Below are positions 27,901 to 36,900 of a DNA stretch of 41,097 nt, in pieces. Below the pieces are notes generated by a model, which was not told the DNA's origin, did not search any database, and was given only the letters and a program-made list of their open reading frames with translations. This DNA comes from an uncultured Opitutales bacterium. GTDB lineage: Bacteria; Verrucomicrobiota; Verrucomicrobiia; Opitutales; T3Sed10-336. Within the stretch, counting starts at the first letter, position 1. Each line of letters begins with the position of its first letter. Location of the stretch: the NCBI GenBank assembly GCA_964544025.1, contig CAZJCL010000001.1, positions 1-41,097 of the forward strand, written 5' to 3'. Made by a program: the position numbers and the translations under genes.

Positions 27901-30900
27901 CTTAGCTCGATCGGCATCAAGCTCATCGGGCCGACTGGCATCGCGGTCCAGCTGTTCAATTCTGACAAGCTTTCCGGCAATTCGCTCGGCAGTGCGCTTC
28001 GAGCGATCACGTTCGACGACGAGGCTCTTCTCGCCGCGATAGATGGTTCGGCTCCCTATAGTGGTTCGTTCCGCCCAGCCGGTTCGCTCTCCGCTTTCGA
28101 TTTGCTCGATCCGAATGGCAACTGGCATCTCGAAATCACCGATGCCACCGGCGCAATTTCCGGGCTCGTCGAATCGTGGTCGCTCGATTTCGCGTTCGCT
28201 CCGGCCGACGCGGAAGCGCTGAAGGTCTCGGTGGCGGGCGATGTGAACGGCGACGGTCTGGAGGATCTCGGCTTCGTGATCCGCGCTTTCCAAGGTGAAA
28301 CCCAGAATCCGTCGAAGGGTCGCGCGTTTATTCTCCCGGGTCAGTATCTGCCGAACAACAGCGGGGGAGGGCGCCTCCTGGTTTCGACCGGCGGCATCGT
28401 CAACGGGGCCACCATCGCCGATATCATCACTTTCGGCGGCAGTGCGAACGGCCTCGCCGCCGCGGTTCTGGAAATTGGCGGATTGAACAACAACATCCTC
28501 TTCCGCGCGAAGAACGTCGGCAATGCCGGCAATGACTACCACAACGGTTACCGGATTCTCCTCAAATACAACGGCGCGCAACTCGAAGGAGTGCTCGTCT
28601 CCTCGACCGCCTCGAGCCTTACCATCACGATCCGCGACGATCAGGTGACGGCCAACGACGTCCTCAGCGCGATCGCCAGCAGCGTGCATGCCTCCTCCTT
28701 CCGCTCGCATTTCGAAGCCAGTCTTTACGCCGAGTCGCAGGCGCGCCTCTACTCCGATTCGATTTGGCAGGCTACCGATACCTCTATCGGCGGGCGGATC
28801 CAGCCGTTGGGCGACATCGATAAGGATGGGGCTGAAGATTTCGCGATTGTCCGCTTCCGGGAAGATTCCGGCAGCGCGTTGGGCGGCGTGCTCGTTTTCA
28901 AGGGTTCGGCGAATTGGCGCCTAGCCGGCGTGGCCGCGATCGACGCCTCCGACAACGCGTTCCTCCGGCTCCTCCAGGCGAGCGCAGGCGAGTTCGGTTC
29001 CACCTCGATCATCAGCGATCTCGTTGTCACCGCGGGCGATTTCAACGGCGACGGGCGGATCGACCTCGTCGTCGGCCGTCCGGATTTCATCCGCGTGACG
29101 GGACAGAATGACGATTATAATCCGGAAACGGACATCCTGGCCGGCAGCACCCGCGGCAGCGTCTTCATCTTCTTCTCCGTCGCAAGTCGCACGCAGGTCA
29201 ACATGCAGTTGCGCCAAGCCAATCTCATCATTGAAGGGCAGGGGGAAACCGACCGCTTCGGCACGTTGGCGCTCACGCCGAACCTCGATTTCGACCAGGA
29301 TGGTCTCAGCGATCTCACCATCGGGGCCGCGACCGCGAACGGCTCTATCGGCGGGACGCGCGTCGAGGCAGGCCGTCTCTATCTGATTTACGGTGCCCGC
29401 ACGATCGAGGCTCTCCCGCAAGTCGACTTCGACATCCTGACCAACCGTTCGGTCGCTGGCGCGGGCAGTTTCCTGGTCGACACGGGAATCGGCCGTCCGG
29501 ATGTTTTCTACGACGCGGATCTCGACGGCGACGGCGTTCTCGACAGCACACGTTACACGCTCCTGCCGGGCGAGGCGGGCAAGTGGTATCGGTTTACGAC
29601 ATTGGGCGACGGCGCGCTCGGCACGATGATCCGTCTTTCGCCGATTGGTGGCGTGAGCGCCGAGTCGATCGTTTCCGGTCACTCGGGCGTCCTGAAGAAA
29701 GAAGGTAGCGTTTACACCATCGAACTCGGTGGCAGCGCCCTTGAACTGCAAAATCCGGACGATCAGGCGATCATCGAGTTCGATCTCTCCGCTTACCTCG
29801 GCATTCTCGACAATCCGAACACTTTGAAACGCGTTACCCTGCGTCTGGCGGGGGTTTCGGGCGGCGATGTCGTCCTGCCGGACGGAATCTCCTCCATGAT
29901 CGAGATGGCGGACCGGCTCTACTTCGTTTCCCGCGCCGCCGATGGATCGCATTCGCTTTGGATGAGCGACGGCACCGCTTTCGGCACGAGCCAGATCCGC
30001 GAACTTGGCGGCACGCCGGTTCAACTCCTGGAGCGCGGAGGGCGCCTGTTTGTCGTGCAACAATTCGCGGAGCCGACGCGGTTCGAGATTCGCGTGCTGA
30101 ACGAATCCGGCACCGATCTGGTTCTTGTTCACGATAACCTGAGTCATGCGCCATCCGCGATCGCGGCTGCGGCCAACACGATATATTTCATCAGCAACGG
30201 CATCCTCCACCACAAATCCGGCTCGGCCGCCGCGACGCCTGTCGCTTCCGCTTCCGGTCCGGTGGTCAACGCCCGCAACGTGGTTCTCGCCGGCACCGAC
30301 TTCTTCGCCGTCGGTCAGAACCAAGTCTGGCGGCTTTCGGGAGCCAGCGCCTCCGCCGTCGAACGGACGGATGATTTCCGCGAGACGCGTGAACTGAGTT
30401 TCGCCGGAAAATACGCCTTCTTCGTCGCGCCCTACGAAAACGTCAACCGCGTCTGGGCGGTTGATCTCGACGCCGGGGAAGGCATCGCCAAGGTGGTTCG
30501 TTCCGGCACCAACGGATTCCTGAACGGAATCGAGGAAATCGTTGCGGTGGGCAATCGTATTTATCTGCTCGGTACTGGCTCGTCCGGCAGCGATAAACTC
30601 TGGATTTTCGACGGCGATACTTTCTCGATAACGGCGGCGCCTGGCGATCTAACCGATCCATCCAGCCTGACGCCGATGCCTGACGGCCGTTTGGCGGTGG
30701 TGTCCGATGGCAATCGGATCGTCATCTTCAATCCGGCAACTCCGGCCTCGGCACCGCTGGTTGTCCAAGTGTCCGACGTAAGCGAGATCACGGAACTTAC
30801 TCCATTCGCGAATCTTTTCGGGACCGGAAAAGTCGGGTTCCTGTTCTCGGCGAAGACCACCGCCTCTGGAGCGGAGCCGTGGAAACTGACCTTCGGCGGA

Positions 30901-33900
30901 GACGGCACTCCCGCATTTGCGATGGTAGAAGATGTCGATACCGGGACCGACCCGTCCTCTCCCGCCGGCTTCACGTTATTCAACGGCGAAATCTATTTCG
31001 CGGCCGACGATGGAGTGACTGGCAGAGAGCTTTGGAAGATCGCTTCCGATGGCACTTCCGCCTCGCTCGCCCTCGATGCCAATCCCGGCGCGCCCGACGG
31101 AAATCCGGCTGATTTCCTCGTCCACGACGGAAAGCTCCACTTCGTGGCCGACGACGGCCAAGGCCGGCGGATCTTCATCTACAGCGGACCGGTCAATAGC
31201 ATCAGAATCGATCCAGGTGCGAACAACGCGCTCGTATTCAGCCATTCCGCGATGACCGAAGGCACCACGGTCATCCTGCAGCTGGCTCAGGTTTCGACGG
31301 CCCCGGATGCTCCAGACGTGAGCGCCACTTTCTCGGGCAACACCCTCACCGTATTCGTGACGGGCGAGGCGACAGCCAACGATGTCGTCGCCTACTTCGA
31401 GAGTTCGGAGGCGCCGGACGGTTGGAACGTGGAAGTCGAAGGCCAGAACGGAAACGGCCGTATCCTGGCGGGCCGCGTGGTTCTGGCGGGGGGCTCCGTT
31501 GGCACGTCCGCGTATCGCGATATTTCCTTCCCGACGCTCTCGGAGGACTACGTATCCATTCGCTTGAGTAATCTCCCCGGTACGACGACCCCGTTTGATC
31601 TTAACGAACTGACGGTTGTTCTTCGCGTCGCGACCGGCACGTGGGCCCGCTACTCGCAACAACCGTATCAAGCCCGGGCGGAATTCGACGCCGTGACCAA
31701 GACTCTAACGATCGATTACAAGCCGGGCGTGACAACGATGGGCGACATCGCCCGCGCGATCGGCACGGAGGTACTTCCAAACGGAGCGGTGCCGCTGAGA
31801 GCGGAGGTAGTCGGACCGGCCGCGAATGGGTTCAATCCGTTCCCGTTCATTGAGATCACGGCGAATGGCAACGGAAACGCGGTGCAGATTCCATTCGGCG
31901 GATCCATTCTCAGTTTCACGAAAACCGGGAACTCGGTGAGATACATCGAAATCCTTCCATCCACCGACCTGTCCACTGGAGAAAACGCTCACGCGACCTT
32001 CAGCGCTGCCACGGGCGTTGTCACGATTCGGATTCGCAACGGCGTCGCCACCGCGAGCGACGTTGTAGCCGAGGTGAACGGGTTGAGCGGCGCGAATGTC
32101 ACGGCGGCGGCCTCCGGTATTTCCGGTTTGGCCCTCACGGTTCCGGCACCGCTGAGCACGATCGGCGGAACGTTCACCGGCGGGGTCGGCGGCGAATTCG
32201 CCGAAACGACGCTGAATATCGGCGGCGACTCCATCGTTATCACCTCGGCCGCGACGGGAAATATCACCAATCTCTTCCGGCTGGTGGCGGCGGTCGTTGA
32301 TGGCGATGGCGCACCGCTGATGACGTCGGCTCCGGTAAAGGTTATCCGTCATGCGAACGGAAGCTATACGATCTATGCATTGCCTGGAGTCGCTGAGGTC
32401 GGCGATGTCATTTCCGCGCTGAACGCCTTCCGGGTTGAAGGTGCGGCGATGTTCACGGCGGTTGCGGGGACGGGCACGGATGCAGACTCGGTTCTCGATC
32501 TTCCGTTTACCGAGCTCGAGGGAGGCGTGAATTATGTCGCCAACCAAGGAACGTTCACCATCGCCGGACATAACTTCACGTTAACGGCGGTGGGAGCCGC
32601 GAAATTGCCGAGCCACACACCGCGCCTGGTGTTCGATTTGATGGATGGCGACGCCTCCGCCATGGCGAGTATTTCCGGCAACATCCTCACGCTTCGTCTG
32701 CGGGCGCACGGGCAGACCGCGACAACGGTGAAGAATGTTTTGGACGCGTTGGATGGCCTGCCCAACTTCAACGCCGCGACCAGCGCCACCCATTCGACGG
32801 CCATCACCGCTCCGGAAGCGACTTATACTTACACTGGACAATTCGTCATCGGCAGTCACACGTTCACTTTTGCTTACACCGGCTCAGGAACGCCGTTTAA
32901 GACTCATACTCCGTCGATACTCTCCAATCTTGATGGTGCGACCCTTGTCGAAGTGGATATCCATAATTCGTCTCTTCGAGTCCGGATGCACGAGGACGAC
33001 GCGGTTACGGTGGGAGCATTGCTGACGGCACTCAATTCTCTCGGCGGATACACGGTCACGACGACAGCGGACACCTCGGAGAACGTGAGCAAGAACGCCG
33101 CCCCGTCGTTCACCCAGAAGGCGACGGTCAACATCGACGGAAAGGTCTTCCACCTCGAACACGGCTCGTCCGTTGGCGGCATCCGCAACCACACCCCGAT
33201 CGTTTCGTTCAACCGTTCCGGAAGCGACACCCCGCCGGCGACGGCGATGCTCATCGGCGCGACCTTGGCCGTGAACCTTCGCATCAGCGGGACTACCGCC
33301 GCGACGGCCGCCCAAGTGGATACCGCGCTCGATGGCTTGTCCGGTATTTCCTCCTCCACCTCCGCCACCGGTTCCCTCGCATCGCCATCCACCGGTTATA
33401 CGGAAACCGTCGGAGGGAACGCGGCCGTGGCGGCGAGCGGCGAGATCGTTTTCGGTTCGAAAACACTGACGATCACCGCGTCGACGGCCGGAATAGGGGC
33501 AAACGACCTGCGCGTCATTCTTGTTGGCAACGGGCGTAAGGCCGATGACACGGGCGTTCTTTCCGGCGATACCGCCAGCGCGGGTTGGAACGCGGTGACG
33601 AAAACGCTGACCGTCCACTTCGTTCCGGGTGTCACGACGTTCGCCAAGATCGTGAGCGCGATCAACGGAGCCGGCGCGGGCGTTACCGCTTCCTACAGCG
33701 ACAACGCCAGCGATATCGTGCGGCACTTCTCCTCCAGTTTCTCCGGCGGCGTGGACGCCGTTGCGGCCAAGGCAACCATTGCGCTGCCGGACGGACGGGT
33801 GATTACCGTCAGCGGTTCCGCGACCGACGGAGCCAATCACAACGGGAAGTCCTTCTCCATCGTTAGCGGAACCTCGGCGGGCATTTCCGAATCGGGCGGC

Positions 33901-36900
33901 AATTTCGTCCTGACCGTTCTCATCAATTCCACGAAGCTCGCCGACATCAACGCATTGCTCGGTGATGATCACGACCTGACCGCGACGGTTTCCGTCGATT
34001 CGTCGGCACCGCTCTGGAATGCCATGGAGGATGTTCAATCCGCCACTCCGGGCACCGAATCCTCGGTAGAGCTCCGTGCGCCGGGGCCGAAAAATGATAT
34101 CCTCATCCGCGCAACCGGCGCTTACAACGGCTACACTGTCCGCTACGACGTCGGGGCCGTTGGTGAATCACCAGAGGTGCAAATCGATCTTCCCGGGCGT
34201 GTAATTGTGATCGAGATCGAATTCGGAGTCACGACGGCCGCGCAGATCGTCGCCGCGTTGAACGCCGTCGACAATATCGAGGCCGAGCTTCTGGTGGAGA
34301 GCGGCGATACGGGCATCCACGACGGCAGCGGTAAGGTCAATGTTGGACCGGGCCGGGCGGGCGGCGTGCCTTCCATCGCGCTGAACGGTTATTCGAATCC
34401 GCGCAGCCTCTTTATCCTCGGCGGAACGATTCATTTCGTGGCCGACGCGCCGGGAGGCACGAAGATCTGGAAGTTGAACGGTTTATCCGCCGCCGATACC
34501 GGAATAGCGTTGGAGGACGCGAGCCTCTTCTCGGTGGCCGAAGATCGCATTTTCTACATCAGCGCCTCGCATCGTCACCTCGGTTCTTACGCGAACGGAG
34601 TCGACTCCACACTTGATGAAACGGTGATCGACGCGATTCTCGCGGTGGATGGCGACCGAGTCGTAGTTCGCACTGCCACCGGATCGATCCGGATGTTGGA
34701 CGTCAGCGGCGATGTGACCGTTATCGGGCGGAAGTTGCCATGGGGCGCGATGGGTGAATCCATCGCTCATAATGGAGGTTTGGTGGCCATTGAGCGCGGC
34801 GAGATTTCCGACATCCTCTGGCGCATCGACGAAAATGGAGCGACCAAGCTGCTCGAATCGGGAGTGGGCAACCGTTTAGGACAACTCTTCTCGGCCGGAC
34901 CGGGAAATCCGCTCTTCTATGTGGAGTCAGCGATCGGTGCCCAGATCGTTCCGACTCTTTACGCACTCGGCAACGCCGCCGGTTCGACACCGTCGCTTGT
35001 CCGGCCAGGTGCGGGAGGCGATCGTTTCGAGTGGTTCACGGTAATTGGCGACGAACTCGCGTTCATCCATCGAGCCTCCGGTTCGGAGGGCCTTTACAAA
35101 ACCTCGCTCGCTACACCCGGAACGGCGGATGCGGTGGCCAATCTCGCCGGAACGGCTTCGGATTTGACGGCTGTCGGCGGAACGCTCTACTTCCGCCTCG
35201 GCAACGCCCGCGGCACGGCGCTCTGGCAGAGCAATTTGACTCTCTCTGGCACCCAGCGCCTGATGCGCGACGGATCGCCGGTCTCGGATCCAGTGGCCCT
35301 CGCGGGGCTGAACGGCCGCCTTTATTTCGCGGCCAGCCTGGATGGTGTCGCGGGTGCCTTCTGGCGTGTCGATGACGATTCGCTCGATCCCGTGGCCCGG
35401 CCGCTGGTGGAATTCGTGGACGCGAGCGTTCCGGCCCTGAAGGTTTCGATCCTGCATGGCGCGGGCGACGGTGTGGTGAACGCGGCGGATGCTGGCCGCG
35501 ACTCGACACTCGTCCTCAACACCGTGAAGAACGACAACTACACCGAGGTGGACGTCACGGAATTGATCCGCTCGTTGCTCGAATCTGGCATCATGCGCGC
35601 CACCTTCCGTTTGGAACTGCCGGATAGCGTGACGACGTCGCTGGCCGAACCGGTGAAGCTCGCGCACGCTTACAACGGAACCTCCCTCCACGTCGTTACC
35701 GGCGAAAGCGATGTGGTGACCGGCTCGCTCTACTCGGTCGACGGCCGCTTGATCCAGTCCGGCCAGCCGGTCATCGATCTGAGTCAACTTCCGGCGGGCA
35801 CCTATTTCCTCCGCGTGAACGGCCCGACCGATGGCATTTCACTGGAAAACCGGGGCACGGTCGACGAACCGACCGATGGCGGCTCGATCGGCACGGCCAA
35901 GGACTACACCTATTATCTGACCGGCGGTGAACTCTGGCGGACGAACGGATCCTTAATCGCGCCTGTGCGCTTCTCGGACGGTTCGGCTGTTACCGGCGCG
36001 ACGATGGTCGGCGGAAGCGGCGACAGTTTCTACTTCACCCTGAAGAACGCGGGAATCGTGTCGCTCTGGCAGATCACGGGGCAGTTCGCCGCGAAGGTTG
36101 CGGACCTTTCCGGAACCGTGGACGACGCGACCGGAGTGGGCGGGAAACTGATTTTCCGGGTTGGCGCTGTTCTCTACGCGGCCGATCCGGAAGGGATCGA
36201 GACGCTCGAAGATTTCGGAGGCACGGAGATCGGAGAACTTTCTTCCGCGGCGGGACGCGCCCTGTTCCTCGTCGATGGAAAATGGTTCGTTTCGGACGGT
36301 TCAGCGGCGGGGACGCGCGCTCTCGACGCGGTGAGCGCGGGCGAGCGGGATGCCGAATCGGTGGTGGCCATGAACGGCATGCTGTTCTACCTCGTCGAAA
36401 GCGGCGGGAAGTTGACTCTCTGGCGGGCCACGCCGGGCGAGGACGATGGATTTGGAGCCGAACCGCTGAAGGTCGCCGCTTTGTCGGCCGTCACCGGCGC
36501 GACCGGAACTCTCTTGGGTGTCGCGAACGGGCGTCTAATCTTTACTGTTACGACCGCCGCGGGCGTTCAACTTTGGAGCAGCAACGGCCTTGGGGATCCG
36601 GTTCTGAACCTGGGTGGCGGTCAAACAGGTGGAACGGAGAAGGTGGCGGATCTCGGCGGGGCCGCACGTTTCGTCGATACGCGCGACGGCCGCCTCTTCT
36701 TCACCGTGACGACGGTCGACGGCATGGCTCTGTGGTCAACCCGCGGAACGTCGGATTCCACCAGAATGGAAGTCGCCTCGCTGCCGGGCCCGGTCGAAGG
36801 ACACGCGGTATTGAACGGGGTAACCTACTTCATCGCCGGAGCGAGCAATAGTCGCATGCTCTGGAAAATGACGGATGATGGCGTGGAACTCGTCACGTTC

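Follow-up and report, generated by a model that had tools for sequence, protein, structure and literature searches.

Giant RTX adhesins such as MpIBP, LapA and SiiE carry extender arrays of bacterial immunoglobulin (Ig)-like repeats. Serial small domains also build giant flagellins and enlarged flagellar axial proteins (Thomson et al., 2018; PMC6248924), and the flagellin IN motif (Pfam family PF07196, Flagellin_IN) has been described by its central Ile-Asn pair (PMC9751261). Here we analyze a repeated module in a giant open reading frame (ORF) of an uncultured Opitutales bacterium (GenBank assembly GCA_964544025.1). The DNA under study, called the window throughout, comprises the first 41,097 bases of contig C1 (CAZJCL010000001.1), in a source assembly of 3.48 Mb, 569 contigs and 59% G+C. 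An earlier inspection of these letters without database searches, referred to as the sequence-only reading, had pointed out an unnamed module with ten tandem and two dispersed copies. We found that these twelve repeats are real copies of one protein domain of ~100 residues. Homologous sequences from other organisms indicate that the domain is a genuine, unannotated family that is not private to this gene.

The module has several features in common with the extenders of MpIBP, LapA and SiiE: domains of ~100 residues stand in tandem in cysteine-free, acidic, RTX-bearing giant proteins, their copy number is variable and a spacer role is presumed. Unlike the Ig-like extenders, it is predicted to fold with a helix and not as an Ig-like sandwich, and no calcium-site motif was recognized in it. 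Similar to giant flagellins, the family forms strings of one small domain in an exposed region, and its FlgL-like carriers reach 1,000-1,250 amino acids (aa). The window protein differs from giant flagellins in that it lacks the flagellin N- and C-terminal ends; Flagellin_N and Flagellin_C domains were not found in it by Pfam and NCBIfam scans.

Ten Tandem and Two Dispersed Copies of One Domain

The giant ORF lies on the plus strand and runs through window positions 1-40662 with no stop over 13,553 codons. Its 5' end is cut by the contig end, and the product is 13,553 aa long or longer. Across 31201/31225-34365 we delimited ten units of 91-126 aa that follow one another (Table 1), separated by short junctions of the xGG(V)x type. 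In leave-one-out searches with hidden Markov models (HMMs), eight of the ten units were recovered with E-values between 7e-12 and 2e-6, and units 1 and 9 with 1.6e-4 and 0.01, respectively, while 20 locally shuffled versions of the entire protein scored 3.9 bits at most. An HMM built from the ten tandem units alone recovered the dispersed copies d1 (14.2 bits) and d2 (9.8 bits). Furthermore, a foreign-only profile, made of 272 domain copies that all come from proteins of other organisms, detected all twelve copies with 7.8-70 bits and, when run over the giant ORF, no copy beyond them. The weakest copies were units 7 (10.1 bits) and 9 (7.8 bits). Unit 9 is also backed by a clear positional orthologue at 2386 of the closest homologue found, a 4,855-aa metagenomic protein (P0009) that is 52% identical across the C-terminal 2,277 residues; the orthologue scored 136 vs. 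46 for the top paralogue. Unit 7 has no orthologue in P0009 and its assignment rests on similarity to unit 5.

These searches bear out the view of the sequence-only reading that the array is ten tandem units of one module with a strand-turn-helix core, and that the two dispersed copies are the same module; together with unit 10, the latter are in fact the most canonical ones, above all d1 (PGANNDIEFRA ... KTMDIYIEKGITTAADVQTAV). The strings quoted in that reading were located, TLTIDYKPGVTTMGDIARAIG at nucleotide (nt) 31702 and RVIVIEIEFGVTTAAQIVAALN at nt 34198. As had been stated, the N-terminal (D/N)I(E/L)(F/I)RA strand is present in the copies at 15.6 kb and 28.5 kb and the HTP signature in units 5-7; the strand is also present in unit 10. 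The dimensions needed correction. Unit length had been given as 245-285 nt and the array end as 34310, where we measured 273-378 nt (mean about 314) and about 34365.

The protein that carries the array is free of cysteine (0 in 13,553 aa), acidic (isoelectric point, pI, 4.35) and rich in glycine (14%). Within the array, the G+C fraction is 0.73 at the third codon position vs. 0.52 at the second, which fits coding on the plus strand; ORFs on the antisense strand are therefore regarded as by-products of composition. Pfam and NCBIfam models recognized about 34 RTX nonapeptide stretches in the giant ORF, mostly at 9-23 kb and with a further block near 37.5 kb, as well as FG-GAP repeats, a PA14 domain and at least three proprotein-convertase P-domains. 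A weak beta-sandwich resembling a type IX secretion system (T9SS) tail, LRR repeats, a LamG domain and a last RTX block near the C-terminus were also found.

Table 1. Copies of the module and the adjoining repeat in the window. Bits and independent E-values (iE) are from the foreign-only profile unless stated otherwise; LOO, leave-one-out HMM.
Feature	Position (nt)	Strand	Remarks
Dispersed copy d1	15553..15876	+	70.0 bits, iE 1e-23; sits between RTX nonapeptide blocks
Dispersed copy d2	28453..28797	+	46.3 bits, iE 2.4e-16; between P-domain and FG-GAP blocks
ELWxxDGT repeat (TIGR04534)	30985..31122	+	76 bits vs. model cut-off of 65; adjoins the array on its upstream side
Tandem unit 1	31201/31225..31497	+	28.3 bits; LOO E 1.6e-4; P0009 orthologue at 1548
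Tandem unit 2	31498..31875	+	126 aa with insertions; 38.4 bits; LOO E 2.2e-8; P0009 orthologue at 1661
Tandem unit 3	31876..32190	+	39.7 bits; LOO E 6.8e-12
Tandem unit 4	32191..32532	+	17.0 bits; LOO E 3.9e-10; P0009 orthologue at 1983
Tandem unit 5 (HTP subfamily)	32533..32829	+	27.9 bits; 38% aa identity to unit 7
Tandem unit 6 (HTP subfamily)	32830..33114	+	13.9 bits; LOO E 1.8e-6
Tandem unit 7 (HTP subfamily)	33115..33423	+	10.1 bits; LOO E 4.5e-7
Tandem unit 8	33424..33756	+	54.7 bits; canonical core TLTVHFVPGVTTFAKIVSAIN
Tandem unit 9, most degenerate	33757..34059	+	7.8 bits, iE 2.2e-4; LOO E 0.01
Tandem unit 10, canonical	34060..34365	+	60.9 bits; chosen for the structure model

An Unannotated Family in Giant and Flagellar Proteins

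When 1.84 billion representative proteins were searched with a profile made from the twelve window copies, 194 matched at E <= 1e-3, 51 of them at E <= 1e-10 and 10 at E <= 1e-30. The proteins contain 1 to 26 copies, mainly head to tail, with 24-26 in the best matches and a median of 3 among the top 150. Using d1 as a blastp query, 66 of 150 family proteins were reached. By comparison, a word-indexed homologue search limited to the array region gave no match, and a search with a 7-copy carrier (the L011 ORF) gave 30 proteins that matched another repeat region, none of which contains the module. The family consensus combines ASATIELPGANNDLTFTATAAGAAFNGVTVVFVDDG..GDAASASYDAATKTLTITIEPGVTTANDVIAAINA..F.A.L with a following NDGSGxI; written out, it reads PGxNNDLxFTA..G..FNGVxVxFVDDG...A.YD...KTLTIxIxxGVTTAxxVIxAIN...FxAxL....NDGSGxI. 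Measured against it, d1, d2 and unit 10 are canonical, and most tandem units lack the PGxNND motif and retain the core.

Two groups of carriers were apparent. The first consists of giant proteins with ELWxxDGT, RTX, GEVED or LEPR-XLL-like features. The second comprises about 27 of the best 150 proteins, which are FlgL-like and have Flagellin_N and Flagellin_C ends; one of them matched the FlgL model TIGR02550 at 201.6 bits. In the source databases the carriers are named "beta strand repeat-containing protein", "ELWxxDGT repeat protein", "S8 family serine peptidase" or "flagellin-like hook-associated protein FlgL", and no such name points to the module. A separate observation concerns a 5,713-aa protein from a member of the Planctomycetaceae (P0017), which is a giant S8 peptidase with GEVED domains and seven copies of the module. 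Hence, the module is joined to enzymatic giants as well as to adhesin-like ones.

We also asked how the copies on flagellar and giant proteins relate to each other. A FastTree phylogeny of 288 domain copies was poorly resolved, with 137 of 285 forks open. Copies borne by FlgL-like proteins were slightly clustered in it (27 label changes, against a mean of 31.6 and a minimum of 28 after shuffling), and from such a poorly resolved tree no direction of transfer between flagellar and giant proteins was drawn.

Probable Relation of the Core to the Flagellin IN Motif

As the sequence-only reading had suspected, searches of Pfam and NCBIfam gave no confident match to a described family. Pfam-A recognized no family on the array, and a scan of the whole region was without a Flagellin_IN match at E <= 0.1. 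NCBIfam returned no family at E <= 1 for the 1,059-aa array and, for canonical foreign carriers, only ELWxxDGT or FlgL models that lie outside the module. What this reading overlooked is a probable motif-level relation of the core to the flagellin IN motif, and the spread of the family beyond this gene. In separate scans of 137 copies, PF07196 was the sole recurring family that is meaningful. Among the twelve window copies it matched one, with the best E-value of all copies (1.5e-4), and the other eleven gave no match. On whole proteins, PF07196 passed its cut-off in two carriers (P0037 and P0020), and the residues matched there are the module core, PDTTTVGELVAAINAAASG and LRIEVQRGVTTAADLVQKIND.

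For a profile-to-profile comparison, we built an IN profile from 119 classical IN-type segments of FlgL-like proteins in which module copies had been masked; one of its seeds coincides with a Pfam Flagellin_IN match in another carrier (P0035). Compared with the family by hhalign, this profile gave a probability of 75.4% and an E-value of 2.4e-5 over 39 columns. IN columns 9-47 were aligned with module columns 54-95 (KTLTIxIxxGVTTAxxVIxAIN...FxAxL...G), that is, with the C-terminal core only. This core, which consists of a strand, a "TTA" helix cap, a helix ending in I/L-N and a further strand, is therefore probably a distant homologue of the IN motif. Nothing in the IN motif corresponds to the N-terminal PGxNNDLxFTA...FVDDG half, which is specific to the family. 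In the column of the Ile-Asn pair, the family has isoleucine in 50% and asparagine in 68% of copies. Among the tandem units of the window, the position reads IN in unit 8, LN in units 4, 6 and 10, VN in unit 3 and LD in units 5 and 7, and the rest are without the pair.

Like PF07196, the module has a strand-turn-helix-strand core, in which the helix of part of the copies closes with an I/L-N pair, and both occur singly or in tandem, also in surface-exposed parts of flagellins or hook-associated proteins (PMC9751261). The module differs from PF07196 by being about twice as long and by an extra N-terminal beta part with motifs of its own; most of its copies are invisible to PF07196, and most of its carriers, the window protein included, are non-flagellar giants. 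One could still argue that the module is merely a divergent member of Flagellin_IN and nothing new, given the PF07196 matches in P0037, P0020 and one window unit and the hhalign probability of 75%. However, PF07196 spans only about 40-55 of the ~100 residues, detects 2 of 137 single copies at E < 0.01 and one of twelve in the window, and leaves the N-terminal half without a counterpart. In addition, neither a profile search of the PDB nor Foldseek retrieved flagellar structures. We consider simple membership in Flagellin_IN very improbable. Judged by these profile comparisons, the module is probably a distant homologue of PF07196 at its core without being a member of it.

Other resemblances were inspected and dismissed. 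HMA (PF00403) matched with E 0.008-0.17, a local pattern that is below significance or compositional; there is no CxxC and no cysteine in the protein, and Foldseek does not retrieve this family. The beta-hairpin repeats of OspA (E 0.0016 in the PDB profile search) show a local or compositional resemblance and are likewise not retrieved by Foldseek. Big_* and Ig-like families gave no consistent match (one of 137 copies at E 0.005).

The giant protein contains a second unnamed repeat at 16.5-23.4 kb. In one part of it (window 19525-19960), a helix DLIDDINRAL follows T..NNxS and also looks IN-motif-like. This repeat was not detected by the family profile, and hhalign from only two copies was uninformative.

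Predicted Fold of the Module

Unit 10 was modeled with AlphaFold2 (AF2) using an alignment of 137 sequences, namely the 12 window copies and 125 copies translated from fetched loci. The model reached a predicted local distance difference test score (pLDDT) of 89.3 and a predicted template modeling (TM) score of 0.83. Strands were placed at residues 2-5, 14-18, 26-31, 39-43 and 48-53, followed by a helix of nine residues (60-68) and a sixth strand (73-77). A model of unit 5, for which the alignment held only the 12 window copies, had a pLDDT of 76.6 and the same order of elements as unit 10. The module is thus predicted to fold into five beta-strands, one helix and a sixth strand.

Foldseek compared both models with 350,542 PDB chains and found no neighbor for either (best E 0.75 and 0.86, TM <= 0.32). 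Our conclusion from the models is the lack of a solved neighbor among these PDB chains, and it stops short of claiming a new fold. Among predicted viral structures, Foldseek hit large uncharacterized phage proteins with E 1.3e-3 to 8.5e-3 and TM 0.47-0.56. Three of these in the BFVD (A0A6J5P918, A0A6J5SY06 and F6LQD4; 426-1,214 aa) had TM 0.53-0.56 at 17-20% identity and were the only models resembling the module. Similar folds may be present in large phage proteins, as far as predicted structures can tell.

Age and Turnover of the Duplications

Pairwise identity among the copies is 12-38% at the amino acid and 32-52% at the nucleotide level. The sequence-only reading had proposed to date the duplications by a nucleotide dot-plot. 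Tandem Repeats Finder detected no repeat in the array at the DNA level, and a repeat search gave only short seeds of low identity. The copies in the giant ORF are ancient duplications.

In P0009, d2 has a clear positional orthologue at residues 621-756 (Smith-Waterman score 320), and so do units 1, 2, 4, 9 and 10; in each orthologous pair the score was 1.5 to 5 times that of the top paralogue. No orthologue was found there for units 5, 6 and 7, which are mutual best matches with 27-38% aa and 40-52% nt identity. They are therefore likely a lineage-specific sub-duplication, judged from these sequence comparisons. In this respect the earlier proposal of a recent sub-duplication holds for the sub-duplication and fails for its age, because identities this low speak for an old event. 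Relative to P0009, the ends of the array are conserved and its middle has been turned over.

Distribution Across Genomes

Named genomes were surveyed with a degenerate DNA pattern for LT[IV]x[IV]xxGVTTAxx[VI] followed by HMM filtering. The domain was present by HMM in 66 of the 89 loci fetched with the pattern; the remaining 23 (e.g., in Propionicimonas, Hymenobacter and Amycolatopsis) were chance matches and were dropped. Most domain-bearing loci belong to four sets: Pirellulaceae, Pirellulales, Thermoguttaceae and Planctomycetaceae; Verrucomicrobiota, Lentisphaeria and Victivallales; Desulfobacterales, Syntrophales and other "Deltaproteobacteria"; and single genomes of Zixibacteria and Rokubacteria, with 16 copies on a single 8-kb piece of the Rokubacteria genome. 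Within the phylum of the window genome, 9 of 401 genomes in 8 of 185 genera carry the domain, and among relatives of the same family or order none of 30 does. The family is hence rare and patchily distributed, mostly in bacteria of the Planctomycetes-Verrucomicrobia-Chlamydiae (PVC) group and in Desulfobacterota.

Nearly all matches in the same phylum lie within open frames that span 3,160-20,466 codons. Four of these genomes (G124, G403, G064 and G073) have two giant frames on one contig, one of 14,000-20,000 codons in which the copies are scattered and one of about 5,000-6,500 codons in which they stand in tandem. This arrangement mirrors a pair of giant genes in the window genome, where the next frame (C1:40805-63277, 7,491 codons) contains 5-6 canonical tandem copies at about 45857-47866. 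A third giant frame, of 4,901 codons on contig C41, has three copies of the module.

The row of giant genes after the window ORF continues beyond C1:40805-63277 with C1:63277-71487 (2,736 codons) and C1:71504-98566 (9,020 codons). Runs of exactly 100 N are located at C1:41098-41197, 43705-43804, 55724-55823 and 95323-95422, the first directly after the window end. Due to these four runs, which are scaffold gaps or masked stretches, the neighboring giant frame is not fully readable.

A Probable Structural Role Outside the Cell

Several features point to an extracellular context of the module. The window protein combines a cysteine-free chain of pI 4.35 with 34 RTX stretches, other carriers are FlgL-like, and the other copies of the genome are located in giant ORFs. 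Across 137 copies, conservation concerns Gly, Asn and Asp at turns, the alternating hydrophobic residues of the strands, the TTA helix cap and the Asn at the helix end, and no conserved set of catalytic-type residues was seen. Together, the variable copy number, the divergent paralogues, the short xGGx junctions and the occurrence both in arrays and as single connectors argue for a structural extender domain. With moderate confidence, we therefore favor the reading that the module is an unannotated extracellular domain of ~100 residues with an IN-related core that serves as a structural extender or surface decoration.

According to this proposal, the ten tandem copies would form a beads-on-a-string rod in a cysteine-free, acidic, RTX-bearing giant protein. 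The rod would space the upstream ELWxxDGT propeller block from the downstream propeller, LRR and LamG blocks, and d1 and d2, the single copies, would connect other modules to each other. In other organisms, the domain would decorate the exposed insert of the hook-filament junction protein FlgL.

A different role was considered as well. With its PA14, LamG, FG-GAP and propeller modules, the host protein resembles an adhesin, and canonical copies keep polar loops of the NND, DDG and NDGSG type. Exposed inserts of flagellar proteins can be adhesive. The module could accordingly be a ligand-binding (adhesive or lectin-like) domain, with the array providing multivalent binding and not length. However, the polar motifs have decayed in most tandem units (FGSKTLTITA, IAGHNFTLTA, FGGSILSFT) although the structural core was kept, the paralogues are only 12-38% identical, and Pfam scans of the array and of single copies gave no match to a lectin or carbohydrate-binding family. 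Ligand binding as the main role thus appears unlikely to us.

The same loops, rich in Asp, Asn and Gly, bear on the question of calcium. If the module were a Ca2+-dependent folding unit, it would, as RTX blocks do, fold outside the cell only, help to pull the chain through a type 1 secretion channel and then stiffen it. The acidic and cysteine-free protein would suit such a unit, as would the position of the module within and beside RTX blocks, with d1 between nonapeptide runs, and the TolC-like and HlyD-like genes downstream on the contig. Against this stand the missing match to any recognizable Ca-binding motif family, the poor conservation of the acidic loops in the tandem units, and the occurrence of the family in FlgL, a substrate of the flagellar type III export pathway. 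We regard Ca2+-dependent folding as a remote alternative.

The possible export apparatus is an observation of its own. Downstream of the giant genes, four adjacent genes (C1:101018-109451) encode a TolC-like OEP (152 bits), an HlyD-type adaptor fused to GAF, a peptidase M50-domain protein and a SecA-like ATPase (SecA_DEAD, 273 bits). By their family matches, they could constitute a dedicated export apparatus for the giant proteins.

Some points weigh against the extender reading that we prefer. The connection to the IN motif is weak, since PF07196 finds so few single copies, the hhalign probability is only 75%, and Foldseek retrieved no solved IN-motif domain and nothing at better than E 0.75. 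Function is a proposal drawn from architecture. Furthermore, the NND, DDG and NDGSG loops of canonical copies could bind Ca2+ or a ligand, so that these copies would not be purely structural. Rod-like packing and strand pairing are assumptions, and the secretion route is putative. The data document the family itself, together with its distribution, its variation in copy number, its predicted fold and its absence from annotation. We infer the three further elements of the preferred reading, namely a role in spacing or decoration, a place outside the cell and a common ancestry of the core with the IN motif.

Implications for Giant Surface Proteins

What is new here is a domain family of moderate size. 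The kind of system is already known, as repeat-domain arrays are found in giant bacterial surface proteins, and no new mechanism is revealed. A more far-reaching proposal, which we put forward only tentatively, is that a new fold family arose by elaboration of the IN motif and was repeatedly exchanged between the flagellar junction and giant surface proteins in PVC bacteria, Desulfobacterota and others. If true, the module would be a mobile building block for a "surface-rod" and would connect two export systems that are otherwise unrelated.

Annotation is largely missing for the giant surface proteins of uncultured PVC and sulfate-reducer lineages; with a name for this domain, hundreds of these proteins would each have hundreds of residues annotated. 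The module, which has a confident model and lacks a solved neighbor, is a reasonable target for structure determination. Its presence in the flagellar junction as well as in giant RTX-type proteins makes it a concrete case in which the movement of surface domains between export systems could be studied.

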